From positions 138,519-202,518 of the IMG/VR virus record IMGVR_UViG_3300035182_002389: DNA of 64,000 nt; one strand, 5' to 3'. This stretch comes from a virus (Duplodnaviria; Caudoviricetes). The notes under the pieces were generated by a model that saw only the letters and a list, made by a program, of their open reading frames with translations, was not told the DNA's origin and searched no databases. The position numbers and the translations under genes are program-made. Below, one piece after another: positions 21,859 through 58,281 of this stretch. Within the stretch, counting starts at the first letter, position 1; the number at the start of each line of letters is the position of its first letter.

Positions 21859-22974
21859 ATGCGCTGGAGCGATTTTGTCGCGCAGATGCGGGCTGGCAAC
21901 GTTCGAGGACAAGCTCTCGACGATGCCGGCCTCGCCGCCATGCTCGCTGGGAACGTTCCCGAATGGATGGCCGCTGCCCCGCGCATCCCGTGCCAAGTAT
22001 CGGCGTCCATCGACGGGCTCACGTACTACTGCGTCTACTACGTCAAGCAGAACTACCTCACCATCGGCGAAGATGACGATTGGGGCACCTTCCCGCTTTC
22101 GGAAGTGAACCTGCAAGCGTGGTGCGACAAGACCGGATGCTTCATCCCCCCGAAGAAGATCATCCGCGACACGTGGGACCGCACCGACTGCAAGATCGCG
22201 CCGCAGAACATCTATCGGCCACCGGCGGGGTATCCGGGACCACTCGACGCAGGCATCGAGCCCATTGCCGCCGAACAGCAGATGATCAACGAGGCGATGC
22301 AGCAAAAAGGCTGCTCCGTCAACTCGTTCTCGCGCGCGAAGAAGGCGTACATCACCGCGCCGAACATGGACGGCGGCAACCTCCACTTCACCGGCTGGTA
22401 CTCGGACGGCATCACAGGCTACAAGGCCGCCGACCCCGGCCTCGCCAACAGCAAGGGCGTCGTGCAGCCTCCGCGCACGCCGTACGGGCGCGCATGGCAG
22501 GACGGCGATGACGCCTCTCATCCGGCTCGCTACGCCGACTACTCGCACGGCTGCGACGTCGTGGGCCCGACCGTCAGCATCAACGATCAGGAGTACAGCT
22601 TCGCGGATGTGTGCGCGCATCCGAAGCTCCACGTGCTCGTCTCGGACCAAGGACCCTTCGTCCCTCGCTTTCCCAACGCGAACTTGAAGCCGCCGTCGCC
22701 TCCCGCGCCCATGCCCAACGCGCCCGAGACGCTCGCGAGCTTTGCAGGGCCCATCTACAAGACCAACAGCGCGGGAATCGCCGTTCTCTCCAAGGCAGGG
22801 CAGCCTCTTGTCCGCTACAGCGTGCCCAACGCTCCCGCGACCACGAACTCTTCAACCTCGCCCGCCTCTTCACCACGCGGTCTCTTGACCATTCTCGGTC
22901 TTGGAGCTGTCGCGATCGGGGCGTATTGGTACTGGAAAGAAAGCGTTCGGCGCCCTCGCCTGGTTCGCGCATAG
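21859..22974 (+). CDS. Membrane-anchored enzyme-like protein with HxxxYxDYSHGC motif, paralog of 57154
   Basis: GAGGAG RBS; MLAGNVPE, YLTIGEDDD, KKAYIT, HPARYADYSHGCD; C-terminal TM ILGLGAVAIGAYWYWK. Confidence 0.75.
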   Translation: MRWSDFVAQMRAGNVRGQALDDAGLAAMLAGNVPEWMAAAPRIPCQVSASIDGLTYYCVYYVKQNYLTIGEDDDWGTFPLSEVNLQAWCDKTGCFIPPKKIIRDTWDRTDCKIAPQNIYRPPAGYPGPLDAGIEPIAAEQQMINEAMQQKGCSVNSFSRAKKAYITAPNMDGGNLHFTGWYSDGITGYKAADPGLANSKGVVQPPRTPYGRAWQDGDDASHPARYADYSHGCDVVGPTVSINDQEYSFADVCAHPKLHVLVSDQGPFVPRFPNANLKPPSPPAPMPNAPETLASFAGPIYKTNSAGIAVLSKAGQPLVRYSVPNAPATTNSSTSPASSPRGLLTILGLGAVAIGAYWYWKESVRRPRLVRA

Positions 22975-22996
22975 ACCTCACCCCAAGGGAAACCTC

Positions 22997-23638
22997 ATGA
23001 AGACCTCGCACATGGTTCTGCTCGGACTCGGCGCTGCCGGCGTCGCGTACCTCGTCTACACGAAGACCAAGACCCCCGCTCCTACCACGGGCGCAACGCC
23101 GGGCACGCCGCCCGCACCAGGCACCACGCAGCTCACGACGGGCCCCGGCGTGCCCGCACCGACCCACGTCGTGTACAAGCCGACGCCCGTCGTTGCGACG
23201 CCGGGAAGCGTCCCTCTGACGCCCACGCCCGCGACGCCTGCCGCGCCGCGCACTGCCCCGACGCCCGACCAGGCCATGAACGATGCGGACTCCGCCGCGT
23301 TCCTCTCGAAGATGGCCTCATACTACGTCCCCAGCAGCGCCGACGACTTCACCTCGATGTCGGGGGCCTTCACCGCGGCGGCCGTCGACGGCACCACGGA
23401 CACGTCCAAGATCGGCGCAAACCTCGCGGCCGGCCTTCCGTACGTGTACGCGAGCGGGGTCATCGACGACGCCAAGAACGCCGGCAAGGCGCTCTACGTG
23501 TCGAAGAGCGATGCTCTGGCGATGGGCCCGAGCGTCGCTTTCCAGTTCGGCGACACCGGCGACATCGGAACCTTCCTGATCGACAACGCCGGCATGGCAA
23601 TCGTCTACCCGAAGATCGCCATCGCTCCACAAGCCTGA
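22997..23638 (+). CDS. N-anchored membrane protein with Pro/Thr stalk, family with 20767
   Basis: VLLGLGAAGVAYLVYTKTK; AFLSKMASYYVPS; NAGMAIVYP. Confidence 0.8.
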   Translation: MKTSHMVLLGLGAAGVAYLVYTKTKTPAPTTGATPGTPPAPGTTQLTTGPGVPAPTHVVYKPTPVVATPGSVPLTPTPATPAAPRTAPTPDQAMNDADSAAFLSKMASYYVPSSADDFTSMSGAFTAAAVDGTTDTSKIGANLAAGLPYVYASGVIDDAKNAGKALYVSKSDALAMGPSVAFQFGDTGDIGTFLIDNAGMAIVYPKIAIAPQA

Positions 23639-23658
23639 TCAGAAGTACCGTTCTTCGA

Positions 23659-23695
23659 GGGGCGCGCTTCTTCGGAGGCGCGCCCTTTCGTTTTA
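23659..23695 (+). terminator. Rho-independent terminator
   Basis: GGGGCGCGCTTC-TTCG-GAGGCGCGCCC followed by TTTCGTTTT. Confidence 0.85.
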
Positions 23696-23810
23696 TCCAT
23701 CAGATTCATCCATCAGCCAGACCCACAAAAAGTAGTGGGTTGCTCGTGGAGAACACTTGTCATGGAGTTCACTGCGAAGGAGACTCGACGACGGGGAAGG
23801 AACGGGAAAC

Positions 23811-24170
23811 ATGAAAGAGTTGACCAACACCGAGAGACTTTGCGCAACGCTGCTCTACTACTTCACGAGCGGCATGGAAGCGCAGCAGGTCATCGCCTCC
23901 GATCCGAAAGCGAAGAGCATCGGGGTCGAAGCGCCGACCGACCAGAACCTCGAAGAGATCCGACACAAGACTCCCATCGCCGTATGGGAAGCTGTGATGC
24001 CTGCCGCCGAAGACGTTGTCCGACGCATCGTCGAGACGGAGCCGCGCGACGCCGGCGTCGTCGCACGAGAAGCGCTCGGCGCCGTGCGCAAGATCCAGAA
24101 GAACGTCGAGTCCTTTCTCGGCTCGCGCTCCGTTCGCCCCATGAGCGAAACGACTCGTCGTAAGTCCTAG
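23811..24170 (+). CDS. Hypothetical protein (119 aa)
   Basis: Purine-rich RBS region before ATG 23811. Confidence 0.65.
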   Translation: MKELTNTERLCATLLYYFTSGMEAQQVIASDPKAKSIGVEAPTDQNLEEIRHKTPIAVWEAVMPAAEDVVRRIVETEPRDAGVVAREALGAVRKIQKNVESFLGSRSVRPMSETTRRKS

Positions 24171-24275
24171 CCGCCACTCTCGCGCAAGATGCGTGCGCGA
24201 TCGATTGAGGTGGTTATGGTCTTGACTCGGTCCGAGGCATGTGCGCCTCGATGACTGTATGAAGAGATTTGTCCC

Positions 24276-24770
24276 ATGGCCGTCAAGAAGATCGCGAAAG
24301 CCTCGGAGACTCTGACCATCCAGCTCCGCCGCCACCTCGAAATCGTGAACCGGATCACCCACGAGCACACCGCTTCGGTGATTCAGACCCTTCGAGACGA
24401 AAACGACTCTCTGCGCAGGCAGATCAAGGACGATCGAAGCGAGCAGAGCGAACGGCTGCGAAATAGGGATCGGGCCATGGAGAGCATGCTCCAGTCGCTT
24501 CTCCCCATGCTCCCCATCGTCATCTCGCGCTTCTCTGGACCCTCGAACGAGTCCGGCGTCCCGCACACGGTCGCTCAGCAGGCCGTCTTCGACGTCGCCA
24601 TCTTCAAGAGCTTCCTCGGCACCATCAACGAGGAGGAGTTCAACGTGCTCATCAACACCTTCGGCGGACGCCTCGCGGGCATCATGGATCTCGCGGCTCG
24701 ATACAAGCGCGAATACGAAGAAGCCCAGGGCTTCAAGAGCGACGCAAAGAAAGACCCGACCTCTCACTGA
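24276..24770 (+). CDS. Coiled-coil protein, paralog of C-terminal half of 24825
   Basis: LQSLLPMLPIV..FKSFLGTINEEEFNVLINTFGGRLAGIMDLAARYKREYE. Confidence 0.8.
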   Translation: MAVKKIAKASETLTIQLRRHLEIVNRITHEHTASVIQTLRDENDSLRRQIKDDRSEQSERLRNRDRAMESMLQSLLPMLPIVISRFSGPSNESGVPHTVAQQAVFDVAIFKSFLGTINEEEFNVLINTFGGRLAGIMDLAARYKREYEEAQGFKSDAKKDPTSH

Positions 24771-24824
24771 CTTGGCAGACGGGGCTGGGCGAGATTTCAA
24801 CGCGAAACATCAGGAGGACGGGGC

Positions 24825-25733
24825 ATGGTCAACAAGGCGGATCTCATCAAGTGGGTGCGCAAGGCAGTCGAGGTCGGCCGCAACGGAGTCGTCGCCAACG
24901 CCTTCAAGATCATCCACGCATCGGTCGGCAACTCCGGCACCGAGGTCGAGGAGTGGAGCAGGCCGTTCGGCGAGATCGGCGATCTTGCCCAGCAGATGAT
25001 CGACACGATCAACCGTGACTCCGAAGGCATGGAGGAGCACACGGTCACGTACCACATCCTCCCCTTCTTCGGAGAGTCGACCAAGCCGCTCGGCCGCTAC
25101 CCGGTCAAGATCGACAACATCAACTACAACGACCCGGAGACCAGCTCCCTTCTCCCCCAAGAAGGAGCGCACCCGAAGGGGCTGCTCGCCCAGAACCAGC
25201 GCCACCTCGAAGGGCTCTGGAAGCTCACGGCAGGCAGCATTCACGAGGCCATGCGTCGCCTCTCCGAAGAGAACGCGTCCTTGCGCGAGCAGGTCAAGAG
25301 CATGGGCGACATGCACCTCCAAATGGTGCAGATGCGAGAGGATCTCCTCGATCGCAAGCAGGAGCGCCAGATCAAGGCCGAGAGAGCTGCGTCTGCCGAG
25401 CACATGAAGACCATGCTCATCCAGCAGCTCCTGCCGTTCCTGCCCATCGTCGTGAACAAAATCCAAGGCAAACGAGTTCTGCCCGAAGCCATCCATCCCG
25501 ACGTCGAGCAGTTCAAGGTCTTCCTCAGCGGAATCAAGGAGGACGAGCTGGGCGTCCTCGTTCAGACCTTCGGCCCGCGTCTCGCTCCGCTCATGGATCT
25601 CGCCATCAAGTACAAGAAGGAATACGAAGACAAGGCCAAGGCCCACTCCGATCGCGCAAGCGAGCTGATGCCTTCCATGCCCGGACCGGGACCTCTTCCT
25701 GGCTTCCCTGCGCCTCGGGGCCTCGGGAGCTGA
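24825..25733 (+). CDS. Coiled-coil protein, paralog of 24276 with extra N-terminal domain
   Basis: AGGAGG RBS; IQQLLPFLPIV..FKVFLSGIKEDELGVLVQTFGPRLAPLMDLAIKYKKEYE. Confidence 0.8.
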   Translation: MVNKADLIKWVRKAVEVGRNGVVANAFKIIHASVGNSGTEVEEWSRPFGEIGDLAQQMIDTINRDSEGMEEHTVTYHILPFFGESTKPLGRYPVKIDNINYNDPETSSLLPQEGAHPKGLLAQNQRHLEGLWKLTAGSIHEAMRRLSEENASLREQVKSMGDMHLQMVQMREDLLDRKQERQIKAERAASAEHMKTMLIQQLLPFLPIVVNKIQGKRVLPEAIHPDVEQFKVFLSGIKEDELGVLVQTFGPRLAPLMDLAIKYKKEYEDKAKAHSDRASELMPSMPGPGPLPGFPAPRGLGS

Positions 25734-25757
25734 CAGATCGGCTACCATGAGGAGGCC

Positions 25758-25961
25758 ATGTCCAAGGTCACCTCGTACTACGCGCAGCGTCCCGCCCTCA
25801 CCCACCTCGTGAGGACCGGGGCGCTCGCCGATTTGGGCGATCAGGACCCTCTTGGGATTCCTCGCAGGTCCAACGGCGACGCGGTCGGACTGCTCGTCCT
25901 CACCACGGCGACCTCCATCGCGGGAGCTTTGCTCCTCTACCAGCTCACCCGCCACGACTGA
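25758..25961 (+). CDS. Small membrane protein with RPAL...TGA leader
   Basis: GAGGAGG RBS; TM GLLVLTTATSIAGALLLYQL. Confidence 0.75.
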   Translation: MSKVTSYYAQRPALTHLVRTGALADLGDQDPLGIPRRSNGDAVGLLVLTTATSIAGALLLYQLTRHD

Positions 25962-25968
25962 AATGTCC

Positions 25969-26018
25969 CGAATACAGCAGGTATTGCCCCGAATACCTCA
26001 GAACAGCGCCTCGAATAC
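25969..26018 (+). repeat. Three phased CGAATAC heptamers (25969, 25990, 26012)
   Basis: Direct repeats 21 and 22 bp apart in intergenic DNA. Confidence 0.7.
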
Positions 26019-26031
26019 CTTCCGACGCCCC

Positions 26032-26046
26032 GACTTTCGACAAGCC
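26032..26046. promoter_or_regulatory. Palindromic operator GACTT-TCGAC-AAGCC
   Basis: Intergenic upstream of the H1-like gene cluster. Confidence 0.75.
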
Positions 26047-26159
26047 GACGCCTTAGACGTTGTGCTTGACAGCCGAAAATCATGTATCGTGGTCCTCGTG
26101 CTGAGGCCAAAGGCCTCGCCTCCTTCCAAACCCGGAAGGCAAAGAAGGGACGGCCTCTC

Positions 26160-26702
26160 ATGGCGTGGACACTCGAAGGCACCAAGAAGGCAATCGCGAC
26201 GATCACCAAGCAGCTCAAGACGGGCAAGAACAAGGCGGGCAAGAAGCTCACCGCGTCCGGCCGCATGATGCTGGAGTGCGCCCTCGTCACGCAGCAGAAC
26301 AACTTCGCGAAGCTCACGGGCCACCCGAAGGCCGCCCTCGCCGTCGGCGCCGGTAAGAAGTCGGCCAAGAAGAAGACCACGAAGAAGGCCGCGAAGAAGA
26401 AGGCCGCGAAGAAGAAGGCCGCGAAGAAGAAGGCCGCGAAGACCGTCGCCGGATCCTTCTCGGTCCCGAAGAAGACCGCGAAGAAGGCCGCGAAGAAGCG
26501 CCCGGCGAAGAAGACCGCGAAGAAGACCGCCAAGAAACGTCCGGCGAAGAAGACCGCGAAGAAGACCGCCAAGAAGCGTCCGGCGAAGAAGACCGCCAAG
26601 AAGCGTCCGGCGAAGAAGGCCGCCAAGAAACGCCCGGCGAAGAAGGCCAAGAAGAGCGCGAAGAAGACCAAGAAGAGCGCGAAGAAGTCGGCCAAGAAGT
26701 AG
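26160..26702 (+). CDS. Histone H1-like Lys/Ala-rich DNA-binding protein 1 (alternative start 26082)
   Basis: KKAAKKK, KKRPAKKTAKK repeats fill the C-terminal two-thirds. Confidence 0.8.
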   Translation: MAWTLEGTKKAIATITKQLKTGKNKAGKKLTASGRMMLECALVTQQNNFAKLTGHPKAALAVGAGKKSAKKKTTKKAAKKKAAKKKAAKKKAAKTVAGSFSVPKKTAKKAAKKRPAKKTAKKTAKKRPAKKTAKKTAKKRPAKKTAKKRPAKKAAKKRPAKKAKKSAKKTKKSAKKSAKK

Positions 26703-26746
26703 TCCAGGCCCCGCGCGTTCCACCCTCCCACGAAAGAGAGATCACG

Positions 26747-26983
26747 ATGGCGGCGAAGAAGAAGACGACGAAGAAGAGCGCGAAGAAGAGCCCCAAGCGC
26801 GCCAAGAGCGCCAAGGCGCCGCACGCTGCGAAGAAGGCCGCTGCGGCGAAGGTTCTGGAGAAGAACGGCGCGTCCAAGAAGACGATGGCCTATCTCCAGA
26901 AGATGATCGGCAAGCTCCCGGCTGCGCACTCGGTCATCATCATCGAGTCCTGGCGGCGCCCCGCGAAGAAGCGCGCGAAGTAG
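26747..26983 (+). CDS. Small basic H1-like protein 2
   Basis: MAAKKKTTKKSAKKSPKRAK.. Confidence 0.75.
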   Translation: MAAKKKTTKKSAKKSPKRAKSAKAPHAAKKAAAAKVLEKNGASKKTMAYLQKMIGKLPAAHSVIIIESWRRPAKKRAK

Positions 26984-27035
26984 CTCGCGCCCCGAAACCC
27001 TCAGAGTCTGCCCTTACCGGCGCAAGGAGACGTTC

Positions 27036-28028
27036 ATGGCTGCGAAGAAGAGTGCGAAGAAGGCGAAGAAGGCGAAGAAGCCCGCCAAGGCCCGCAAGCC
27101 CGCCAAGGCCCGCAAGCCCGTCAAGGCTCACAAGACGGCGAAGAAGACCGCGAAGGCTCGGAAGCCTGCGAAGAAGACCGCGAAGCGCTCGAAGGCCACC
27201 ATGAGCAAGCGCGACGCGCAGCTCAAGCGTCTGCTCGGCCTGCGCGCCTTCCACAAGCGTCAGGGCCACGACACGTCCGACATGGACGCGAAGCTCGCCA
27301 AGATGATGCCGGGCAAGTGGGACGAGGCGGTCACCATCGCGAAGGTCGGCAAGCCGGCGAAGGCTCGCAAGCCGAAGTCGCGCAAGCCGAAGAAGGCCGC
27401 GAAGAAGTCGGCGAAAAAGTCCCCCAAGAAGTCGGCCAAGAAGAAGGCGCACCTCGGCTACACGCCGACCGGACGCCCGAAGCAGAAGCTCGACAAGAAG
27501 AGCCGTCGCTACAAGGCGGCCGTCATCAACGTCGCGAAGGCTCGCCTCTTCCGTCACACGAAGAAGCTCGTCGACGCCGGCGTCCTCACCCCCGACGAGG
27601 GGCGCAAGCTCGCGGGCGACATCGAGCTGGACTTCAGCAAGCTCGGCGCCGACCACCCGCTCGCCAAGGAAGCGGCGGCCAAGCTCGCGGCCCAGGAAGA
27701 GGCTCGCCTCAACTCCATCGCCGCCGAAGCGAAGCGTCGTGAAGGCATCCGCACCGGCCGAGCCGCACACGGTTCCGGCCGCATGGCGACCGGCGGCAAG
27801 CGTGCTCTTCCGGCACGCCCCACGCGCCACCGCGGACCGAACGTCTCGGCGTCCTTCGGGCGCAGCGCGTCGACGGGCGTTCCGAACGTCTCCGCCGCGG
27901 CTCCCCACGGCCGTCTCATGACGAAGGCCGAGTTCGAGATCATGGACCGCAAACGTCGGGAGGCCGAGCGCCTGCCGCACTTCAAGATGGAAGGTGAGGA
28001 AAGCGAGCCCGTCACCATCCGCCGCTGA
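27036..28028 (+). CDS. H1-like protein 3 with interspersed globular segments
   Basis: AAGGAG RBS; KPAKARKP repeats; KKAAKKSAKKSPKK; Arg-rich C-terminus. Confidence 0.8.
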   Translation: MAAKKSAKKAKKAKKPAKARKPAKARKPVKAHKTAKKTAKARKPAKKTAKRSKATMSKRDAQLKRLLGLRAFHKRQGHDTSDMDAKLAKMMPGKWDEAVTIAKVGKPAKARKPKSRKPKKAAKKSAKKSPKKSAKKKAHLGYTPTGRPKQKLDKKSRRYKAAVINVAKARLFRHTKKLVDAGVLTPDEGRKLAGDIELDFSKLGADHPLAKEAAAKLAAQEEARLNSIAAEAKRREGIRTGRAAHGSGRMATGGKRALPARPTRHRGPNVSASFGRSASTGVPNVSAAAPHGRLMTKAEFEIMDRKRREAERLPHFKMEGEESEPVTIRR

Positions 28029-28047
28029 TCCAATCGGATCTCACAAC

Positions 28048-28080
28048 GCGCCCTGCTCTTCTTCTTGGAGGGCGGGGCGC
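28048..28080 (+). terminator. GC-rich hairpin after H1-like cluster (no clear U tail)
   Basis: GCGCCCTGCTCTT...GAGGGCGGGGCGC. Confidence 0.45.
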
Positions 28081-28098
28081 AGTGCTATCATCTGACGC

Positions 28099-28287: not shown

Positions 28288-28318
28288 CGTTCGATAAAGA
28301 GGTGATTAGGATGGCGAG

Positions 28319-29446
28319 ATGACCATCTTCCGCTGCGTCGCGTGCGAGGCGCTCACGCAGGTGTCGTTCCCTCACTGCCGCACGTGTGGCACGACCAACG
28401 GCTACCACAAAGCGCCGAAGGGGACACGGATGCCCAGACCCAAGCCCGAAGGCGCCGGCGGAGCGCCCGGCATGGGAGGATTCGGCGATTTTGGCGGAGG
28501 GTTTGGCGGCGTCGATGACGCGCCCCTTGACCTCGATCCGGTGGGCGGCGCTCCTGGGTTCGATCCGCCCGGACTTGGCGGACCGCCCGGCCCAACCGGC
28601 AAGAAGATCCGAAACACAGCAGGCTACGAAGAGCCCGACAAGAAGCCGCGCGCCGTATCCATCGGCCGCGTCGCCGTGCAAAAGCGAAGGCGCCTCGCGA
28701 CCGGAATCAAGCAGCTCGATCGCGTTCTCGGAGGCAGCGAGCAGAAAGGGTTCGGCATCGTCACCGGGTCCTCTGTCATGGTCGATGGAAGCCCCGGCAT
28801 CGGTAAATCCACGCTGCTCCTTCAAGCGGCTGCGAAGCTTGCGCTGCAAGGACCCGTCCTCGTCGCAACCGGCGAGGAGGCCATCGACGACATCAAAGAG
28901 CGCGCGCTGCGTCTGAAGATCCTCAAGGATCCGACGGTCCGAAAGAACCTGCTCCTCGTCGAGATGACCGACACTGACGATCTCATCGAGATCATCGAGA
29001 AGCGAAAGCCCATCGCCGTCATCATGGACTCGGTGCAGATGTTCATCTCAGAGAATGCCGTCGGTCAAGCCGGCTCCGAACCTCAGTGCAAGTACATCCT
29101 GAATGAGCTGATCAAGAAGACGACAAAGCCCATGGGCATCGCTCTCTTCATCGTCTCGCAGGTGACCAAGGACGGCGATGCGCGAGGTCCCAACACCATC
29201 GCGCACATGGTCGACGCACACCTCAAGTTCGACCGCGAGAACCCCAAGGATCTCTCCGACGTGAAGCGCCGCCTCTGGCAAAAGAAGAACCGCAACGGCA
29301 ACATCGCCATCACGGGCCGCTTCTGGATGACCGACAAGGGGCTGCGAGGTCTCAAGCACAAAGACGTTGTCGACTTCACAGCTCCGCGCAAGGAGCCGAA
29401 GATCAAAAAATCCGCGCGCGATCACGGACACAGCAAGGCGGCTTGA
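28319..29446 (+). CDS. radA: RadA/Sms-like recombination ATPase lacking the C-terminal S5/Lon-like domain
   Basis: N-terminal CxxC..CxxC finger; TGIKQLDRVLGG; Walker A GSPGIGKST; IMDSVQ; GPNTIAHMVD; KNRNG. Confidence 0.85.
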   Translation: MTIFRCVACEALTQVSFPHCRTCGTTNGYHKAPKGTRMPRPKPEGAGGAPGMGGFGDFGGGFGGVDDAPLDLDPVGGAPGFDPPGLGGPPGPTGKKIRNTAGYEEPDKKPRAVSIGRVAVQKRRRLATGIKQLDRVLGGSEQKGFGIVTGSSVMVDGSPGIGKSTLLLQAAAKLALQGPVLVATGEEAIDDIKERALRLKILKDPTVRKNLLLVEMTDTDDLIEIIEKRKPIAVIMDSVQMFISENAVGQAGSEPQCKYILNELIKKTTKPMGIALFIVSQVTKDGDARGPNTIAHMVDAHLKFDRENPKDLSDVKRRLWQKKNRNGNIAITGRFWMTDKGLRGLKHKDVVDFTAPRKEPKIKKSARDHGHSKAA

Positions 29447-30317: not shown

Positions 30318-30345
30318 TTCGCAGGCGACACGGGAGAAACACGAG

Positions 30346-31110
30346 ATGATCACGCCCATCGTCAAGCCCGACGTTCTGCCCGATCCGGTTCCGGGTCTTG
30401 CGCCCTCCGTTCCAGGGTATCGGCGCTTCCCTGCCTCGAACTTCGTTCCCCGAGGGGGATTCGCAAACCAGATCACCGTCGAAGGACAGATTCTCGACGC
30501 CAACAAGCAGCCCGTCGCAGGCTCCTCCTACGACGCCATCCTGTACCTGCTCATCGACGGCATTTGGCGACAGGCAGGAAAGCCCGTCACAAACATCGCG
30601 GGCGGAAGCGGGCCGCAGCCCGCGCTTGGATCGGGCAGGGGATACACGTCCGCGCGCGTCGTCAGCTTTCTTTACGGGGGCATCGTCGATGTTGCCGCCG
30701 AGGGCTACATTCAGGTCGTCAACATCGTCCCGCTCACCGGCGTCTCGATGCTCTTCAAGGTGCAGAGCCCCGAACCTTCTGCCACCGTTTCTCGAAGCCT
30801 CTCTGGCGCACCGGAGGTATCCCTCGCTCCGCCTGCGACCTGGAAGACGCTGCCCACGTTCGTGAATGCTGGCGCTCTCGGTCCTCTCGTCCCCGTTCCT
30901 ACGCCGGTCGAGCAGTACGTTCTCCTTCAAGCGGACGCTGGCAACCCGGGCCAAACCGTCATCGTTAGCCAGGGCATCGGCAGCCTCAGCCAAGGCTTCG
31001 AGCTTGCTGCTGGCAAATCTATCCAGTGGCCGACGCGCGACGCCGGCAACATCTACATCCTCACCGACCAAGCGGCGGGCGCCATCACCATCCGCGTGAC
31101 GAGGTTCTAA
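30346..31110 (+). CDS. Beta-rich putative virion protein, paralog of 29550
   Basis: IVKP..PGYRRFP..GQILDANKQPV..VPTPVEQYVLLQ..IQWPTRDA. Confidence 0.75.
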   Translation: MITPIVKPDVLPDPVPGLAPSVPGYRRFPASNFVPRGGFANQITVEGQILDANKQPVAGSSYDAILYLLIDGIWRQAGKPVTNIAGGSGPQPALGSGRGYTSARVVSFLYGGIVDVAAEGYIQVVNIVPLTGVSMLFKVQSPEPSATVSRSLSGAPEVSLAPPATWKTLPTFVNAGALGPLVPVPTPVEQYVLLQADAGNPGQTVIVSQGIGSLSQGFELAAGKSIQWPTRDAGNIYILTDQAAGAITIRVTRF

Positions 31111-31112
31111 AC

Positions 31113-32603
31113 ATGCCCGTTTCCCGATCGGCCAAACTTCCCGTCGTCGAAGCCAAAAACAAGAAGGCTCCCACGGCCTCCAATCCCGCGCTCGAACCTG
31201 CGCGAACGATTCCCCTCGCCATTGGGGGACCTCCCGTTCGCGGACCTGTCGGCGAAAAAGGTCTGGTCGGCGAGCGAGGGGCAAAAGGTCTCCTTGGCGA
31301 CAAAGGACCCAAGGGCGACGCGGGGCCTCTTGGCTCTCCCGGACCCAAGGGCACGATCGGCGACAAGGGGCCGAAAGGTCCGCTTGGCGATCCTGGGCCG
31401 ATCGGTCGGCAGGGGCCTGAAGGCGTGCAAGGCCCGAAGGGCGTTCAAGGACCCGTCGGCTCTCCAGGACCTATCGGGCCCGCGGGCAAAGAAGGGCCTA
31501 CCGGACCGAAGGGCGAGATAGGCGCTCGCGGAGACAAGGGGCCGATGGGCGACGTCGGTCCCCAAGGTCCCCTCGGCTCGCCAGGACCCAAGGGCGACAA
31601 GGGGCCGGCCGGCGACAGGGGGGCGGTCGGGGACAAAGGGCTGATCGGCGACAAGGGGCCGATCGGTGACAAGGGGCCGGTCGGTGACAGGGGGGCGGTC
31701 GGGGACAAAGGGCCGATCGGCGACAAGGGGCCGATCGGTGACAAGGGGCCGGTCGGTGACAAGGGGCCGGTCGGCGAGCAAGGTCCGCAAGGTCCGCAAG
31801 GTCTCCGAGGCGAGCAGGGCCCTCTCGGCGACGGGGGGCCGATCGGGGACAGGGGGCCGATCGGGGACAAGGGCGCCACCGGCGACCAAGGCTCCACCAT
31901 CCTGTTTCCCGCGACGCGACGAGCCTTCCAGGGCGCTTCGCACGTCTACTACCTCGACGAGTCTGCGCTGCCGCTCAAGAACGCCGCAGGGCCCGACGGC
32001 ATTCTCACCTCCGACGAGCCGAAGGGGCTCATCTTCCGCGACACGTCCCTCTTCAACCGAGGGACGCCGGCGCTGCGCATCCAAGGGCGCACCCCTTCAC
32101 AGGGTGTCTACTCGACCGACGTCAACGCAGACGTGAGCCGTGGCGCCACACTCGAAGTCGTCTTCGAGCCGAGCGAGATGACCCCCGACGTTCGGTGGAT
32201 CGCCGAGCTGATCGGCGTCATCCCCCAGGGCGGCAAGCTCAACGCGTTGTCCATCGCGTTTTTCCCGAACACCCTGCGAGCCCAAGTCATCCTCGGAGGC
32301 GTCAGCGGCGAACACGCGCAGTTCACCGCCAGCGTCCCCTGGACCAACGGACGACGCACGGTGTTTGCGCTCAGGTTCGACCCCGCTCGCGGTACGCTCG
32401 ACGCCATCCTCAACGGATTCGTCGAGTCCTCTGTCGCGACCCGTGGAATCATCGAGGTCCCGCTCTCTCAAATCGCCATCGGGCGCGCCATCAACAAGAG
32501 CGCGGCCTCGTGGAAGGGCACCATTTCCGAGGTCCGCTTGACCCCGTTTGCACAACCTGACGAATACTTCGTCGAAGGAGTGCGCGCGATGGGCTTGCTG
32601 TAG
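31113..32603 (+). CDS. Collagen-like fibre protein with C-terminal LamG/ConA-like head
   Basis: 73 uninterrupted Gly-X-Y triplets (31242-31898); C-terminal TLEVVF..WTNGRRTVFALRFD..LNG..IAIG..KGTISEVRL. Confidence 0.85.
   Translation: MPVSRSAKLPVVEAKNKKAPTASNPALEPARTIPLAIGGPPVRGPVGEKGLVGERGAKGLLGDKGPKGDAGPLGSPGPKGTIGDKGPKGPLGDPGPIGRQGPEGVQGPKGVQGPVGSPGPIGPAGKEGPTGPKGEIGARGDKGPMGDVGPQGPLGSPGPKGDKGPAGDRGAVGDKGLIGDKGPIGDKGPVGDRGAVGDKGPIGDKGPIGDKGPVGDKGPVGEQGPQGPQGLRGEQGPLGDGGPIGDRGPIGDKGATGDQGSTILFPATRRAFQGASHVYYLDESALPLKNAAGPDGILTSDEPKGLIFRDTSLFNRGTPALRIQGRTPSQGVYSTDVNADVSRGATLEVVFEPSEMTPDVRWIAELIGVIPQGGKLNALSIAFFPNTLRAQVILGGVSGEHAQFTASVPWTNGRRTVFALRFDPARGTLDAILNGFVESSVATRGIIEVPLSQIAIGRAINKSAASWKGTISEVRLTPFAQPDEYFVEGVRAMGLL
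31242..31898 (+). repeat. Collagen Gly-X-Y coding repeat including 18-bp GDK-GP(I/V) units
   Basis: 657 nt = 73 triplets counted in the translation. Confidence 0.9.
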
Positions 32604-50543: not shown

Positions 50544-50545
50544 CC

Positions 50546-50893: not shown

Positions 50894-50969
50894 GCCCGTC
50901 AGTCCTCCGCGCTCGTCGCTCTTGTGCGGCGACGACCAGAAGAAGATCATCGCCTTCACAGGAGACATC

Positions 50970-52019: not shown

Positions 52020-52038
52020 TTCGACCACGCGTTTTCGG

Positions 52039-52080
52039 TGGAGCCCTCGACGTCGCGCTTTGCGGCGTCGCAGGGCTCCA
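52039..52080. other. Long intergenic hairpin
   Basis: TGGAGCCCT-CGACGTCGC-GCTTT-GCGGCGTCG-C-AGGGCTCCA. Confidence 0.6.
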
Positions 52081-52115
52081 TGATGCTGCGGGGTTCGCCC
52101 GCCAAGAGAAACCTC

Positions 52116-52727: not shown

Positions 52728-52903
52728 AAGCCCCCTCGCTCACTCGCCGAGTCGGAACCGAAAGCACGGCCCACACGGGCGCGTGGACCATGGGCTGCGA
52801 AGAAACCGTCTCCACGCCAGTCATGCTCATTCACGTGGGCGCAGCTCTCGTTCTTTACGCAATCGCCTATGAGCGCGGCGCGGCTTCTGAGAAAAAGACC
52901 TGA
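52724..52903 (+). CDS. Small membrane protein
   Basis: ATGA overlap; RRVGT..HTGA; TM VMLIHVGAALVLYAIAY. Confidence 0.6.
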   Translation: MKAPSLTRRVGTESTAHTGAWTMGCEETVSTPVMLIHVGAALVLYAIAYERGAASEKKT

Positions 52904-52950
52904 CCAAACTTCGGCGCACTTCCAACGCCCACGACTGACGGAGTTTTACG

Positions 52951-53376
52951 ATGCCCTGCCCCAACCCGAGCTGCCCGTACGCAAACGACCCAAGCCACTT
53001 CTGCCCATGCTCCTCGGCTGCTGTCGGTAGGGGCGGCGGGGGAGGGGGCGGAGGACATGGAGGCGGCGGAGGAGGCCATGGAGGCGGCGGAGGCGGCGGA
53101 GGCCACGGCGGCGGAGGGCATGGCGGAGGTGGAGGCCGCGGGTGGGGCGGCGGAGGGTGGGGAAACTACGGGCTGAGGCCCAGGCCGCACGGGTACTACG
53201 GCTGGTACGCAAACGGATACTGGTGGCCGGGCTGGTGGGACTACCCGAACGAGCTGAACGATACGAGCAGCCTCCTCGCACTCGCCAGAGCCTTGCAGAA
53301 CGGCGCCATCACAGGCGCGCAGGTGCGAGCCATGGGGATCAGCCCCAACGCCCTCATCGCCATCCTCAGCCCGTAG
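52951..53376 (+). CDS. Cys-rich leader, Gly/His-rich and Trp/Tyr-rich protein
   Basis: MPCPNPSC..AAVG, GHGGGGG repeats, YYGWYANGYWWPGWW, C-terminal ALQNGAITGAQVRAMGISP. Confidence 0.7.
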   Translation: MPCPNPSCPYANDPSHFCPCSSAAVGRGGGGGGGGHGGGGGGHGGGGGGGGHGGGGHGGGGGRGWGGGGWGNYGLRPRPHGYYGWYANGYWWPGWWDYPNELNDTSSLLALARALQNGAITGAQVRAMGISPNALIAILSP

Positions 53377-53385
53377 CGGCTCGCC

Positions 53386-53400
53386 GACTTACCGCAAGCC
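53386..53400. promoter_or_regulatory. Palindromic operator GACTT-ACCGC-AAGCC
   Basis: Intergenic, 18 nt before ATG 53419; same spacer as copy at 1446. Confidence 0.75.
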
Positions 53401-53418
53401 CGCCAGAGTCCAAAGAGC

Positions 53419-53868
53419 ATGATCCTCTTCTCATACGGCTCCAATCACCCGGCCCAGCTCGCTGAAAGGCTTGGCCGCGCCATCAAGAGGACATGGCCGG
53501 CATTTTTGCCGGGACACGAACGAGTGTTTCGAGGGCGGTCCGTGCGGTGGAACGGAGGCGTCGCGAGCCTCAAAGCACATCCGAAGGCCACGACCTACGG
53601 GTACGCCGCCGAAGTCAACCGCGCAGACATCGAAAAGCTCGACGTTTACGAAGGGATTGCCCAAGGCAAGTACAAGCGCGTCGAACTGCCCATCGTCATC
53701 GAGGTGCACGGCGCTCACAAGGAGACGCTCGCATCGCTCTACGTCAGCACCAGCGAAGAGTTCAACGCGCCGAGCAGGGAATACCTCGACGCCGTGGCGA
53801 AGACCATCGCGTCTTTCTGGGTCGGATCTAAGGGTACGATCACGCGCAAAGACATCCCCATCCGCTGA
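53419..53868 (+). CDS. Gamma-glutamylcyclotransferase (GGCT/AIG2-like) family protein
   Basis: LFSYGSN, GVASL, KLDVYEG, YKRV, PSREYL. Confidence 0.85.
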   Translation: MILFSYGSNHPAQLAERLGRAIKRTWPAFLPGHERVFRGRSVRWNGGVASLKAHPKATTYGYAAEVNRADIEKLDVYEGIAQGKYKRVELPIVIEVHGAHKETLASLYVSTSEEFNAPSREYLDAVAKTIASFWVGSKGTITRKDIPIR

Positions 53869-53876
53869 GGAGTCCG

Positions 53877-54188
53877 ATGGCCGCCAAAAAAGCGAAGAAG
53901 TGGTCGAAAAAGATCAAGACGTCCTGGGAACCGCCGGAGGGTCTTTTCAAGCAAGACCCGAAGACGATCGCGTACGCGGTCGCGTCCGATTCCAAGGACT
54001 TGCGGCAAGCCGTCCAGAGGATCCAGTTCTACGTGAACCGCGCCGGATCGAATCTGTCCACCGAGCGCAAGCGTACAATGGACAGGGCCAAGGACTACGT
54101 TCGGTTCCTCTTCGACAACCCGTCCTCGCTCGCGCAAGTGCGACGTTCGTCGATCGCCCCATCCTCCACCTTCCTGTCCCTCGCTTGA
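53877..54188 (+). CDS. DUF3175-like protein
   Basis: KKWS..EGLFKQDPKTIA..QFYVNRAGSNL..RAKD pattern (from memory). Confidence 0.65.
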   Translation: MAAKKAKKWSKKIKTSWEPPEGLFKQDPKTIAYAVASDSKDLRQAVQRIQFYVNRAGSNLSTERKRTMDRAKDYVRFLFDNPSSLAQVRRSSIAPSSTFLSLA

Positions 54189-54198
54189 CGAGAACCCC

Positions 54199-54396
54199 AT
54201 GAAGGCTACGAGCTGGTTCTTTCTTGGTGGCGGAGCCCTCGCCGTCACCTACCTCGTCCTCCGATCTCGGGAAGAGGCCGCCAAGAGCCAAATCGCGAAC
54301 ATTCAGGCGCCGATTCAGACCGTAGAGCCGAAGACGTCTTCCGACGTTCTCAACCAAGGCCCGCCGCCAAGCGATGTTCGGCGAACCTCTACCTAG
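54199..54396 (+). CDS. Small N-anchored membrane protein
   Basis: WFFLGGGALAVTYLVLRSR. Confidence 0.7.
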   Translation: MKATSWFFLGGGALAVTYLVLRSREEAAKSQIANIQAPIQTVEPKTSSDVLNQGPPPSDVRRTST

Positions 54397-54435
54397 CCAG
54401 ACGGCACGATCTTCATCTAACCTTCGACGAGGACC

Positions 54436-55119
54436 ATGAACAACACGTCGCGCGAGTGGGTCATCACCTTCCAAAAAGGAGCCAAGAGCGAGCCGGTCCA
54501 GCTCGTTCGATTGTCTGCCACGAGCGCCGACATCGCGAAGAAGACGTTCCTGTCGCTCGTCCCTCATGCGAAGGTCTACAACGTAGGTCTCGGCATCGGC
54601 GACGAGAGGATTCCACGCATCGACCAGATCCTCGACGCTTCGGAGCTTTCCTCCGCGGCGAAGAAGAACACGCCCCGGAGAAGCACCATGCCCAAGGCAA
54701 AGAAGGCCGCGAAGAAGAGCACGAAGAAGGCCGCGAAGAAGAGCGCGAAGAAGCGCCCGGCCAAGAAGCACGTGGCCAAGAAGGTCGCCAAGAAGCACAC
54801 GGCGAAGAAGCACACGGCGAAGAAGACCGCCAAGAAGCGTGCACCGAAGAAGGCTGCCAAGAAGCGTGCGCCGAAGAAGGCCGCCAAGAAGCACGCGCCG
54901 AAGAAGGCCGCCAAGAAGCACGCGCCGAAGAAGGCCGCCAAGAAGCACGCGCCGAAGAAGGCCGCCAAGAAGACCGCCAAGAAGTCGGCGAAGAAGTCGC
55001 CGGCCGATCGCGTCGCACGCCGCAAAAAGTGGAACGCGTTCCAGAAGTCGCACGCGGGCAAGGGCCTCACCAAGAAGCAGCTCGGCGAGAAGTTCAAGAA
55101 GGCCCACCCGGAGAAGTGA
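54436..55119 (+). CDS. Histone H1-like protein 4 with N-terminal globular domain; second in-frame start at 54688
   Basis: GAGGA RBS; KKAAKK repeats; GGAG 7 nt before internal ATG (MPKAKKAAKK). Confidence 0.8.
   Translation: MNNTSREWVITFQKGAKSEPVQLVRLSATSADIAKKTFLSLVPHAKVYNVGLGIGDERIPRIDQILDASELSSAAKKNTPRRSTMPKAKKAAKKSTKKAAKKSAKKRPAKKHVAKKVAKKHTAKKHTAKKTAKKRAPKKAAKKRAPKKAAKKHAPKKAAKKHAPKKAAKKHAPKKAAKKTAKKSAKKSPADRVARRKKWNAFQKSHAGKGLTKKQLGEKFKKAHPEK
54844..54972 (+). repeat. Five 27-bp units encoding PKKAAKK(R/H)A
   Basis: Units start 54844, 54871, 54898, 54925, 54952. Confidence 0.9.
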
Positions 55120-55140
55120 TCTCCGAGGTCGGCATCGACC

Positions 55141-55173
55141 GGGAGCGCGGAGACGTCGTCTCCGCGCACTCCC
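55141..55173 (+). terminator. Strong hairpin after H1-like gene 4
   Basis: GGGAG-CGCGGAGAC-GTC-GTCTCCGCG-CA-CTCCC; weak U tail. Confidence 0.5.
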
Positions 55174-55202
55174 GCCTTCAACATTTACGCTAGGAGGCGG
55201 AC

Positions 55203-55592
55203 ATGAACACCGTCGAGCATCTTCACCTGCTCATCTCCAACGACGCGGTCCTGTACCGCAGCCGCGTTCTTCCCATTCAAAAGAACCTTGCGAACCGTAT
55301 GGCGAAGGGCGAGTACGACCCCGCCAAGGCCGCGATTCTCTTCCGCTACCTCGTCGACGAAGCTGCGAAGAAATACCAGTCCATCGTCGGCCGTCTGAGT
55401 GGACGCGAGCGCAACCAAGTCGCCGAAATGTTCGAGAGAAGCTTCCGCGCTGAATGGTCGCTCGGCAACCACCGCGAAAGCCTCAGCAAAATGGCCGCGA
55501 CCTCGCTCGGAAACCAAGAGACGTCGCTGCCCACGACCTCCCTCGACGACACGTCCATCTCGATTCGACCACGACGGTCAAGTCTCCGCTAA
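55203..55592 (+). CDS. Phage-type hypothetical protein
   Basis: AGGAGG RBS; LISND..LY..PIQKNL..KGEYDPAKA..Y..DEAAKKY pattern seen in phage proteins (from memory). Confidence 0.7.
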   Translation: MNTVEHLHLLISNDAVLYRSRVLPIQKNLANRMAKGEYDPAKAAILFRYLVDEAAKKYQSIVGRLSGRERNQVAEMFERSFRAEWSLGNHRESLSKMAATSLGNQETSLPTTSLDDTSISIRPRRSSLR

Positions 55593-55611
55593 CACAAACT
55601 CAACGTGCCAA

Positions 55612-55626
55612 GGCTTACGGTAAGCC
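55612..55626. promoter_or_regulatory. Palindromic operator GGCTT-ACGGT-AAGCC followed by TG-A-TAGGAT (55640-55645)
   Basis: -10 lies 9 nt before ATG 55655. Confidence 0.78.
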
Positions 55627-55654
55627 CCGACGCCCGTGATAGGATCAAGACACC

Positions 55655-55930
55655 ATGTTCGACTACAACCCGCACGTCTTCACCGGAGCCGAAACGACCG
55701 CCACGGGCCCGACGCAGCCCGGTCTCACCACGCCTCCGGGCACGCCCCCGTCGACGTTCTTCAGCGACAACAAATACTACATCATCGGCGGCGTGGCCGT
55801 CGTCGGCGTGGCCGCGTACATGCTGATGGCCAAGAAGGGCGACAAATCCATCTCGGGCTCCGACTCCAGCGTCGGCGGCTACCATCGCGACAGCTACGCC
55901 GGCATCCAGCACGCCGCCCGTCGACGCTAG
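55655..55930 (+). CDS. Small membrane protein
   Basis: YYIIGGVAVVGVAAYMLMAKK. Confidence 0.75.
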   Translation: MFDYNPHVFTGAETTATGPTQPGLTTPPGTPPSTFFSDNKYYIIGGVAVVGVAAYMLMAKKGDKSISGSDSSVGGYHRDSYAGIQHAARRR

Positions 55931-55939
55931 AAGGCCTCG

Positions 55940-56293
55940 ATGAGCGCATGCACGCACAGTCTCCGGGTTCGTAAGAACCGATTCGGACGCGGCATCTACG
56001 CGAAGCGCGACTACGCGCGGGGAGAGACCATCGAGGTCTCCCCCGCGGTCATCGTCAAGAAACGCGACATTCGCGACGACGATCGCCTCGCCGACTACGC
56101 GTTCGAGTGGGCGCGCGGAAAGTACGCCATCGCGCTCGGCTACGGATCGCTCTTCAACCACTCCGAAGAACACCAGAACGCCACGTGGCGCAATGATCTC
56201 GCCCACAACCGCCTCGTCTTCTACGCCATCCGGCCGATCAAGAGAGGGCAGGAAATCTTCACGAACTACGGGTACGACCCGGCGAGACGCTGA
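55940..56293 (+). CDS. Minimal SET-domain lysine methyltransferase
   Basis: GRGIYAKRD..GETIE; GYGSLFNHS; AIRPIKRGQEIFTNYG. Confidence 0.9.
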   Translation: MSACTHSLRVRKNRFGRGIYAKRDYARGETIEVSPAVIVKKRDIRDDDRLADYAFEWARGKYAIALGYGSLFNHSEEHQNATWRNDLAHNRLVFYAIRPIKRGQEIFTNYGYDPARR

Positions 56294-56301
56294 GGAGACC
56301 G

Positions 56302-56526
56302 ATGACGCGTAAGCATGCCATGAAACACAGCGCGGCCAGCATCGCGACGAGCGCCGATCTCGACCCCGATGATCGTCTCGGCATCGAGCTGAGCCACGCC
56401 ATCATGCGCGTCCTCTCTCAACACTCACGCGTCGGGCAAGCTCACGCCGATCGCGTCTCGCGAGCCGCCTCTCGATACGTCCTCAAATCGCTCAAAGAAG
56501 CGGGCAAGTCCTCCGTCCCGTTCTGA
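56302..56526 (+). CDS. Hypothetical protein (74 aa)
   Basis: GAGGAG RBS. Confidence 0.65.
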   Translation: MTRKHAMKHSAASIATSADLDPDDRLGIELSHAIMRVLSQHSRVGQAHADRVSRAASRYVLKSLKEAGKSSVPF

Positions 56527-56533
56527 GGTCAGC

Positions 56534-57136
56534 ATGGCGTCCAGGAAGTTCAACGCGAAAGAAGCCAGGAGCATCGGAACGTCGATCGGCGTCGACTTCC
56601 AGAAGTTCAGCCTCGACGAGTTCCGAAAGGGTCTCAGCGCGGAGCTGGAACACAAGGACGTCACCAAGGGCAATCTCTCCATCACCGGCAAGATCGCGAT
56701 GGCCCACCTACGCGAAATGCCGGACTACTACACGAAGCTCGATCTCATGGAACGAGGGGCGTGCTGCCCTTGCTCGCCGCTCCACAAAAAGCTCCAGCGC
56801 ATCGAAAAGAAAACCGGCTCCGCGCCGAAGACAAGCTCAAAAAAGCATGTCGCACCAGCAGCCGTCGCACGCGTTGCTCGACGCGCTCTCGAATGGCGGC
56901 GTGAGTTCAAGCGCGGAGGAACCGCCATCGGCGTGCGTCGAGCTGTGCAGCTTGCGGACCGACAAAACTTGTCGGACGACACCGTTCGGCGCATGAAGGC
57001 GTACTTCGCCAGACATGCCGTAGACAAGAAGGCCAAAGGGTTTCGGGAAGGCGAACAAGGATTCCCTTCCGCCGGCCGCGTTGCGTGGGACCTGTGGGGA
57101 GGCGATCTCGGGCGTACGTGGGTACGGGGGCTTTGA
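56534..57136 (+). CDS. DUF5661-like domain fused to a phage-associated RGGT..YFARH..AWDLWGGD domain
   Basis: EFRKGLSAELEH..GKIAMAHLREMPDYYTKL; LSDDTVRRMKAYFARH..PSAGRVAWDLWGGD. Confidence 0.7.
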   Translation: MASRKFNAKEARSIGTSIGVDFQKFSLDEFRKGLSAELEHKDVTKGNLSITGKIAMAHLREMPDYYTKLDLMERGACCPCSPLHKKLQRIEKKTGSAPKTSSKKHVAPAAVARVARRALEWRREFKRGGTAIGVRRAVQLADRQNLSDDTVRRMKAYFARHAVDKKAKGFREGEQGFPSAGRVAWDLWGGDLGRTWVRGL

Positions 57137-57153
57137 GGCCGGCCCAGGACCCC

Positions 57154-58281
57154 TCAACGAATCGACGACGAAGGACGTGAAAGGAAATACGCCACGGCCG
57201 CACCGGCGAGCATTGCTCCGCCGGCCATGAGGACCTTCGTCGACGTCGATGTCGAGGCTCCACCGCCGGCATCCATGACGAAAGGTTCGGGGTCAGGGCC
57301 CTGCACGTAGTCTGTGCGACCTTCGACGCCCGGCGGGTTTGACGCCGGATCGGGGATCGCCACGCCGTCGGAACCCGTCACGTAGCTCACTCTCTTCGCT
57401 CCGCTCGTCCCCGACATGGGAGGGGGCATCAGCGTCTTCTTCGACCCGTTGTTGAGCACCGGCAGAGCGTTCGTTCCCGCGTTGGGGAACCGAGGGTTGA
57501 ACGGCCCGTCGTCCGAAACGAGCACGTGCAGCTTCGGATGCAAGCACACCTCGTCGAACGAAAACGGAACGCCGTTGACCGACACCTGCCAATAGACGAG
57601 GTCGCAACCGTGCGAGTAGTCCTCGTAACCAGCTTCGTGAAATGACCAGTCCCACGGCTGGATCTGCGAGCCGTTCGGCCAAAACCAGCCACCGAACGCC
57701 ATGTTCTTGCCGTCCAGGTTCGGCCTCGTGATGTACGCCTTCTTCGTTCGCGTGAACGCGCTGTAGTTCGCGCCGAAGATGACGCCGGCCTTCGCGAGAG
57801 CTTCGTTGACCCGCTCGTTCTCTTTCGCAATGACCGACGTTGCGAGCCCAGGATGGCAAATGCCGAGAGGATTCTTCTCGGTCTTCTCACAGGGCCTGGA
57901 GAGGGCCTGCGGATCGATTTTGAACGACGTCGACTGCCACGTGTTCTTCACGATCTTCTTCGACGGAATGTAGAACTTCGAGGTTCGGTCCGTTGGATCT
58001 GAAGCGCTCACGAGCATTCGAGCGTCGCAAAACGATTGCAGACTTGGCTGTATGAGCGGCCATCGAACGAAGTCCTCGTTCGTGCCGATCGACAAGTAGT
58101 CGGGCGGCGTTAGGTACGTCAGCTCGTAGTCACCTCCGTCGATGACCGCAGACGTTCGGCACGTCTGAAGATGCTCCATGAACTCCGGCGTATTGCCGGC
58201 GAGCATCGTGGAGAGCGCAAGCGCATCGCGCTTCGGATCGCTCATGTCCCAGACAAGCTTCAGGAACTCGGAGCCCTTCAT
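57154..58281 (-). CDS. Membrane-anchored HxxxYxDYSHGC protein, paralog of 21859
   Basis: MLAGNTPE, YLSIGTNED, KKAYIT, HEAGYEDYSHGCD, VCLHPKLHVLVSD; TM LMAGGAMLAGAAVAYFLSR; TG-G-TAGGCT 7 nt upstream. Confidence 0.8.
   Translation of the reverse strand: MKGSEFLKLVWDMSDPKRDALALSTMLAGNTPEFMEHLQTCRTSAVIDGGDYELTYLTPPDYLSIGTNEDFVRWPLIQPSLQSFCDARMLVSASDPTDRTSKFYIPSKKIVKNTWQSTSFKIDPQALSRPCEKTEKNPLGICHPGLATSVIAKENERVNEALAKAGVIFGANYSAFTRTKKAYITRPNLDGKNMAFGGWFWPNGSQIQPWDWSFHEAGYEDYSHGCDLVYWQVSVNGVPFSFDEVCLHPKLHVLVSDDGPFNPRFPNAGTNALPVLNNGSKKTLMPPPMSGTSGAKRVSYVTGSDGVAIPDPASNPPGVEGRTDYVQGPDPEPFVMDAGGGASTSTSTKVLMAGGAMLAGAAVAYFLSRPSSSIR

Follow-up and report, generated by a model that had tools for sequence, protein, structure and literature searches.

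Which protein family do two membrane-anchored viral proteins belong to when their most conspicuous motif, Ser-His-Gly-Cys (SHGC), recalls the active site of the L,D-transpeptidases? This question is raised by two open reading frames (ORFs) in the window analysed here, which is the final 64 kb (64,000 nucleotides) of the 202,518-bp IMG/VR genome of an uncultured bacterial virus, IMGVR_UViG_3300035182_002389 (64% GC). YkuD-type L,D-transpeptidases are characterized by the pattern H-x(14-17)-(S/T)HGC, and a sequence-only reading of the window had proposed that both ORFs encode divergent Cys/His enzymes that remodel peptidoglycan (PG) on a viral membrane. On the sequence comparisons presented here, the genes are rather two of three old paralogs that belong to a viral branch of a large and so far unnamed family, whose bacterial members are extracytoplasmic proteins.

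Paralog 1 (plus strand, 21859-22974; 371 aa and a stop codon) and paralog 2 (minus strand, 57154-58281; 375 aa and a stop codon) were found as ORFs, and their proposed paralogy was borne out by BLASTP (40% identity, E = 2e-57). They are separated by 35.3 kb and located on opposite strands, paralog 2 being a solitary minus-strand gene amid a plus-strand region. The GC content at third codon positions (0.78-0.80) is typical for genes of this genome. The two proteins had been said to align throughout, which holds for residues 21-274 of paralog 1 against 19-268 of paralog 2, but not for the last ~100 residues, where linker and anchor share a common architecture without significant sequence similarity. 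A third paralog is located outside the window (G000:C1:18457-19578, corresponding to L002:1501-2622). It comprises 373 aa, is 44% identical, and also has the DYSHGCD motif and a C-terminal anchor.

Paralogs 1 and 2 both contain the sequence H-x3-Y-x-D-Y-S-H-G-C-D. In paralog 1, it is located at H221-PAR-Y-A-D-Y-S-H-G-C232-D233 (22519-22557, plus strand), whereas the D-Y-S-H-G-C stretch of paralog 2 covers residues 221-226 (57604-57621, minus strand). The reported distance of 11 residues between His and Cys is present in both (H221...C232 in paralog 1, H215...C226 in paralog 2) and recurs in paralog 3. The pattern [ST]HGC, for which 0.11 occurrences are expected in the viral proteome, was found solely in the three paralogs. 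As these genes are homologous, its confinement to them points to a single origin and common descent rather than to repeated chance.

According to the structural model, the globular unit of paralog 1 covers residues 1-315 (21859-22803, plus strand) and is composed of N-terminal helices, a C-type-lectin-like core and a Pro-rich segment with a β-hairpin. This hairpin (aa 299-312; window 22753-22794) follows the Pro-rich segment and packs on the core with a predicted local distance difference test score (pLDDT) of 93-94. It is kept across the viral clade (Y-x-G-x2-F-x-T...G...L-x-K-A) and absent from the cellular homologs, and in the model it appears to belong to the globular unit. A flexible Ser/Thr/Pro/Ala linker (aa 316-340, pLDDT 41-44; 22804-22878, plus strand) connects this unit to a C-terminal membrane helix, assigned by hydrophobicity to aa 341-359 and modelled as a helix over 341-364, and to the basic tail KESVRRPRLVRA (together 22879-22971, plus strand). 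Paralog 2 ends in a membrane helix at aa 350-368 and the tail RPSSSIR (57157-57234, minus strand). Both anchors are hydrophobic helices rich in small residues and followed by K/R, in agreement with the sequence-only reading.

The likeness to the YkuD L,D-transpeptidases is restricted to the S-H-G-C tetrapeptide and an upstream His. Neither protein matched the YkuD profile (PF03734) in hmmscan at E ≤ 1, and the YkuD hidden Markov model (HMM) gave no candidates in a six-frame search of the full 202-kb genome, with the control positive in 7 of 14 genomes. The spacing of 11 residues lies below the 14-17 of YkuD, and the fold appears to be a different one: the rows listed for the structural models of paralog 1 and of a bacterial homolog (see below) are of lectin or FGE type, and no YkuD chain is among the matches listed. 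Furthermore, the family does not conserve the Cys. In 189 aligned domains, the column after G231 (C232 in paralog 1) holds I in 81, V in 67, C in 20, A in 11 and L in 7 sequences, and 19 of the 20 Cys belong to viral-type sequences, i.e. the signal-less, Cys-rich members described below. Since this column is aliphatic in most of the family, it represents a packed hydrophobic position and not a conserved nucleophile. We conclude that the SHGC/YkuD likeness is a four-residue coincidence and, from the alignment, that the family as a whole does not use this Cys in catalysis.

It would still be conceivable that the proteins form a Cys/His acyl-enzyme like YkuD or, in a weaker form of this idea, that the viral clade alone evolved a His230-Cys232 dyad. 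C232 occurs in all viral-type sequences but one, two residues past the near-invariant H230, and the exception (P0003, with Q-G-V in place of H-G-C) lacks not only C232 but also H230. Moreover, the cellular S-H-G-[IV]-R equals the YkuD motif S-H-G-C-[IV]-R except for the Cys. The residue composition of the column nevertheless indicates a buried aliphatic site, and C232 is just one of about seven clade-specific Cys that substitute V, A, L or I elsewhere. Together with the missing HMM match, the shorter spacing and the lectin-like fold, this makes a Cys/His enzyme extremely improbable in either form.

The family to which the paralogs do belong is not represented in the common domain collections. 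No family was found in Pfam, PHROGs or NCBIfam for the viral proteins and six bacterial homologs, sequence searches against the PDB, for which one protein or a profile served as query, returned nothing meaningful, and the ESM Atlas contained unnamed clusters only, without a named match for the bacterial homolog. A word-indexed search retrieved 41 homologs, and a profile search of 1.84 billion representatives retrieved 3,781 at E ≤ 1e-3, including 1,603 at E ≤ 1e-30. At least 599 species genomes have a homolog, as counted with one peptide pattern, and the taxa include Acidobacteriota, Thermodesulfobacteriota, Alpha-, Beta- and Gammaproteobacteria, Myxococcota, Ignavibacteria and Cyanobacteriota. 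Scanning IMG/VR gave no relatives besides the window's own record, and a metagenome scan gave three short viral-type contigs and nine bacterial contigs, the bacterial loci having housekeeping genes as neighbours. The sole homolog among 50,697 deposited phage genomes (INPHARED) is encoded by a 485-kb uncultured phage (LR745208.1; L018:2995-3756). It is a soluble protein of 253 aa without signal peptide or anchor and with uninformative neighbours, in which KKD and HGVR are kept and GWF replaces GWH.

Conservation within the family is sharp. G31, P34, Y66, G70, P79, K162, G179, H221, D227, Y228, S229 and G231 are fixed in the 189 aligned domains, H230 is fixed in 188 of them, and D74, K161 and W180 are nearly fixed. 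Across 83 cellular members that are only 37-55% identical, 26 columns are invariant, the majority of them occupied by polar residues (R, N, Y, T, K, D, Y, W, H, Q, H, D, Y, S, H, R). A hydrophobic N-terminal segment is present in 112 of 156 cellular homologs versus none of 21 viral-type sequences, and many cellular members consist of a lone secreted domain. In 56 collected sequences the domain starts past residue 150, and several of the inspected late-start homologs have a membrane anchor at their start and, after it, an extended spacer rich in Ala and Pro. Among 83 multidomain members, we found PG_binding_1 (8), CBM_4_9 (5), a type IX secretion system (T9SS) tail (4), SH3_3 (2), dockerin (2) and several immunoglobulin-like (Ig) domains. 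Fusions to PG_binding_3 and a weak CHAP match were found as well. The metagenomic protein P0064 (2036 aa) contains the domain three times, in partial or complete form, and its other regions have no Pfam match.

The viral-type sequences are clearly delineated within this family. In a tree of 72 domains, 17 signal-less Cys-rich sequences constitute one clade (SH-aLRT 100) with a stem branch of 1.16 substitutions per site, and P0016, which is anchored yet has the cellular residues, is placed between this clade and the cellular sequences. None of the 21 viral-type sequences has a hydrophobic N-terminus, the clade being marked by an MKGSEF-type start, and the C-terminal helix with K/R tail is present in every viral-type sequence examined. 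They contain 7.4 Cys per domain, compared to 1.7 in the others. At positions 45, 58, 89, 111, 232 and 252, these Cys stand where the others have V, A, L or I, and a further Cys is fixed at the variable position 152. Three near-invariant cellular residues are also replaced, namely D163 by A, H181 by Y or F, and R233 by D. Only the viral clade has C232 and D233, the residues at these positions being I/V and R elsewhere. Every one of the three paralogs has closer relatives in other samples than in its own genome (62% identity between paralog 2 and P0122, 61% between paralog 3 and P0011), from which it follows that the duplications are old and that all copies have been retained. The paralogs differ chiefly at three indel loops, the largest of which lies between G-W-Y/F and H221 and adjoins the conserved motif in sequence. 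For paralog 3, comparison with a 97%-identical strain variant (metagenome contig L007) gave a ratio of nonsynonymous to synonymous substitution rates (dN/dS) of 0.28, the linker accounting for 7 of the 10 changes, and on this ratio the gene is under purifying selection.

To which fold this domain belongs was addressed with models of paralog 1 (27 sequences; pLDDT 80.8, predicted template modelling score (pTM) 0.76, low-confidence segments 186-209 and 320-342) and of the bacterial homolog P0168 (52 sequences; pLDDT 95.6, pTM 0.92). Foldseek against the PDB and BFVD gave nothing significant; the weak PDB rows were of the FGE/EgtB/Mtd type, with EgtB at E = 5e-3 in the top rows. In an exhaustive structural alignment of the P0168 model, only 97 of 48,161 chains reached Z ≥ 2. 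The top match of both models was the C-terminal domain of Bd2740 (PDB 8OKS), with Z = 7.6 for paralog 1 and Z = 8.6 for P0168, the latter superposing 108 of 111 residues at a root-mean-square deviation of 2.3 Å. TvpA, PorK, CarF, PvdO, Mtd, EgtB, an FGE paralogue and invasin/intimin were the next matches of both, followed lower down by dozens of animal C-type lectin and Link domains. Nearly all of ranks 1-30 for P0168 are lectin or FGE-type domains, and the list for paralog 1 is similar. The models thus indicate that the ~260-residue domain has a C-type-lectin/FGE-like core with ~150 extra residues in N-terminal helices and insertions, although the Z values are moderate and the assignment covers the fold and not the function. 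The calcium-sugar motifs EPN/QPD and WND were found in 0 of 188 family sequences, which classes the domain, as far as motifs can tell, as a calcium-independent type of lectin-like fold. Pfam Lectin_C and FGE-sulfatase gave no match to the family proteins. A variable protein of a diversity-generating retroelement was considered and rejected, as no RVT_1 was found in the genome and, at the DNA level, the genes have no repeats other than their paralogs.

Bd2740 is the calcium-free lectin-fold tip of a prey-binding fibre of Bdellovibrio, which its authors compare with phage Mtd (PMC10769870). Bd2740 and Mtd of the Bordetella phage (Z 6.4-7.1) share with our domain a calcium-independent lectin fold without Ca, EPN or WND motifs, and both are used by a predator or a virus at the surface of its prey (PMC10769870). 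The viral proteins have no sequence similarity to them, possess ~150 extra residues and a strongly invariant polar motif, and are placed on a membrane helix and not on a trimeric fibre, without a reverse transcriptase or a template repeat. The members of the FGE-sulfatase fold (FGE/SUMF1, EgtB, OvoA, PvdO, CarF) align with Z 6-7.4 over 137-160 residues, and many bacterial family members adjoin two FGE-sulfatase-like genes. In 57 of 80 genome loci (L019-L098), the bacterial homolog is adjacent to two such genes, which are related to each other, arranged in tandem and for the most part convergent with it. The pair encodes proteins of ~340 and ~600 aa (e.g. L021:3874-4920 and L021:4920-6749, both minus strand). 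The shorter protein is conserved, contains a great deal of Cys and gives a Pfam FGE-sulfatase match of 34-43 bits, and with the homolog the pair makes up a conserved three-gene cluster that spans several phyla. Unlike the enzymes of the FGE-sulfatase fold, our family does not match Pfam FGE-sulfatase and has other conserved residues, and a profile-profile comparison with the neighbouring FGE-like family by hhalign detected no homology (Prob 0.1%). The pair has no counterpart in the virus. RegIII-type C-type lectins, which are secreted by animals and bind PG with an EPN-type site, offer a functional analogy only, that of a lectin fold at bacterial wall glycan, with no detectable homology.

What would such a domain do on a virus? 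We favour, tentatively and at somewhat less than an even chance, that the paralogs are modules tethered to the virion membrane that grip a glycan of the host wall or envelope during entry, and that binding is likelier than cutting. In this scenario, a secreted, wall-associated bacterial domain would have been captured by the virus group; in the viral copies, as the comparisons show, the export signal has been lost, an anchor of the type found on a viral wall-cutting enzyme has been gained, and the domain has become enriched in Cys and triplicated. The C-terminal helix would tether the proteins to the viral membrane, by analogy with the virus's own anchored SLT transglycosylase and with P26 of Bam35. 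A putative pocket of Y66, D74, K161/K162, W180, H221 and D227-Y-S-H230 would grip the glycan as the particle crosses the wall, and the three loop differences would confer three specificities. The earlier idea of PG-remodelling enzymes on a viral membrane is retained here in part: the paralogs are anchored, and a link to the cell wall is plausible because the homologs are secreted, because fusions to PG_binding_1, PG_binding_3 and SH3_3 occur and because the SLT is similarly anchored, but the Cys/His enzyme is not supported.

Cutting in place of binding has its own arguments. The domain may be an active enzyme of a new class on wall or envelope polymers (a hydrolase, lyase or amidase) with the viral copies serving as virion-associated wall breachers, in which the invariant His/Asp/Ser/His/Lys cluster, perhaps with a metal, would act. 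In its favour are the 26 invariant and mostly polar columns among cellular sequences of only 37-55% identity, and the fusion partners, nearly all of which serve in binding or sorting, the usual company of a catalytic domain. In addition, the relatives with the FGE/EgtB fold have enzymatic functions, and the phage versions, like endolysins, lack a signal peptide. The viral clade, however, lacks three near-invariant polar residues (D163A, H181Y/F, R233D), a loss that makes binding or positioning likelier than catalysis; the virus already has SLT, GH25 and GDSL enzymes; the lectin fold mostly serves binding; and no activity is known among family members. On balance we consider an enzyme of this kind possible though unlikely. 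A variant in which the family consists of extracytoplasmic envelope-polymer enzymes, and in which the viral clade rebuilt the active site by these same three replacements and the new Cys beside His into a different chemistry on the viral membrane, seems quite improbable.

The anchored SLT transglycosylase (14333-15055, plus strand, domain match) has no signal peptide and a C-terminal anchor (...GAGSLLICAGGYFAYKQYAARKKNA) very similar to that of the paralogs, although it is not a member of the family. The window further encodes a GDSL esterase with a C-terminal helix (7944-9098) and a GH25 muramidase (17637-18635), both identified by domain match. A Gly/Ala-rich helix that ends in aromatic residues and is followed by K/R is C-terminal in the SLT and the paralogs and near the N-terminus in others; across the anchor-bearing proteins compared (window 14333-15055, 7944-9098, 13734-14315 and 22997-23638), the payloads are on opposite sides of the anchor in sequence. 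A C-terminal tail module shared with window 13701-13907 was rejected, as the match is weak (E about 1e-5) and consists of low-complexity or transmembrane sequence.

From their layout alone, the paralogs could be true tail-anchored proteins, whose domain would be cytoplasmic or capsid-facing and would act in assembly by linking the membrane to the shell or vertices. The absence of a signal peptide and the C-terminal helix with a short basic tail form the classic arrangement, the genes sit among membrane-protein genes, and three paralogs are kept across related viruses. We judge this distinctly unlikely in view of the ancestry from secreted, wall-associated proteins, the four-fold Cys enrichment, which suits an oxidising location, and the SLT enzyme, which needs access to PG and has the same layout.

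The gene order bears on a further alternative. The ATG of paralog 1 is located 7 nt past the stop codon of an upstream gene (20982-21851, plus strand; start uncertain, GTG 20982 or ATG 21495), with GGAG 5-8 nt before it, and the two genes are probably co-transcribed. The upstream product has a membrane helix and a Pro-rich linker and belongs to no Pfam family. Downstream, 22 nt after paralog 1, follows a gene for a 213-aa protein without a Pfam family (22997-23638, plus strand), which is composed of an N-terminal membrane helix, a basic stretch, a Pro-rich linker and a C-terminal domain. Paralog 2 is adjoined by a DUF5661 gene (56534-57136, plus strand), and a related ORF (L006:1729-2055) follows a metagenome homolog, so that the adjacency to a DUF5661 homolog may be conserved. 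Other genes in the window include one for a fibre-like candidate with collagen repeats and a Laminin_G_3/ConA-like C-terminal domain (31026-32603, plus strand) and one for a KaiC/DnaB-like ATPase (28319-29446, plus strand). With membrane-anchored proteins derived from bacterial envelope proteins, and with paralog 2 solitary on the minus strand and apart from the others, the products might be non-virion proteins that are inserted in the host membrane during infection and alter the envelope, for instance to block superinfection or to time lysis. This is very doubtful, given that three paralogs have been retained for long, that the clade is found only in virus-like contigs and that translational coupling ties paralog 1 into a series of genes for membrane proteins.

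Several points weigh against a glycan-gripping module on the virion membrane. Function and ligand are putative throughout the family, and PG-binding fusions occur in only ~1/10 of the multidomain homologs. In the cellular proteins, the many invariant polar residues look less like a lectin site than like an active site, and the viral copies may accordingly still be enzymes. By the usual topology rules, a signal-less domain placed before a C-terminal anchor and a basic tail should remain cytoplasmic, and whether it could reach the wall would be set by the construction of the virion membrane; this viral membrane is itself deduced from gene content. Finally, the clustering of the conserved residues in a pocket is putative.

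A membrane-tethered, wall-directed module would have precedents among the tectiviruses. P7 of PRD1 is a membrane-anchored virion transglycosylase. P26 of the tectivirus Bam35 is a transmembrane transglycosylase without signal peptide (PMC8539640). The paralogs resemble P7 and P26 in combining a domain that we propose to be wall-directed with a transmembrane helix and no signal peptide, as does the SLT of the window. They differ from them in that the paralogs have no SLT match or known lytic domain and in that their virion location is putative.

For annotation, these results replace a tempting L,D-transpeptidase label by a testable one. They also expose a very large family, with thousands of clusters in many phyla and a sharply conserved motif, that has no Pfam, NCBIfam or PDB entry, and which large, apparently membrane-containing bacterial viruses captured, triplicated and re-engineered. 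Should the domain prove to bind or cut the wall, membrane-containing phages would have a new module in their entry toolkit, and there would be a way into what the bacterial family and its conserved FGE-like neighbours do.

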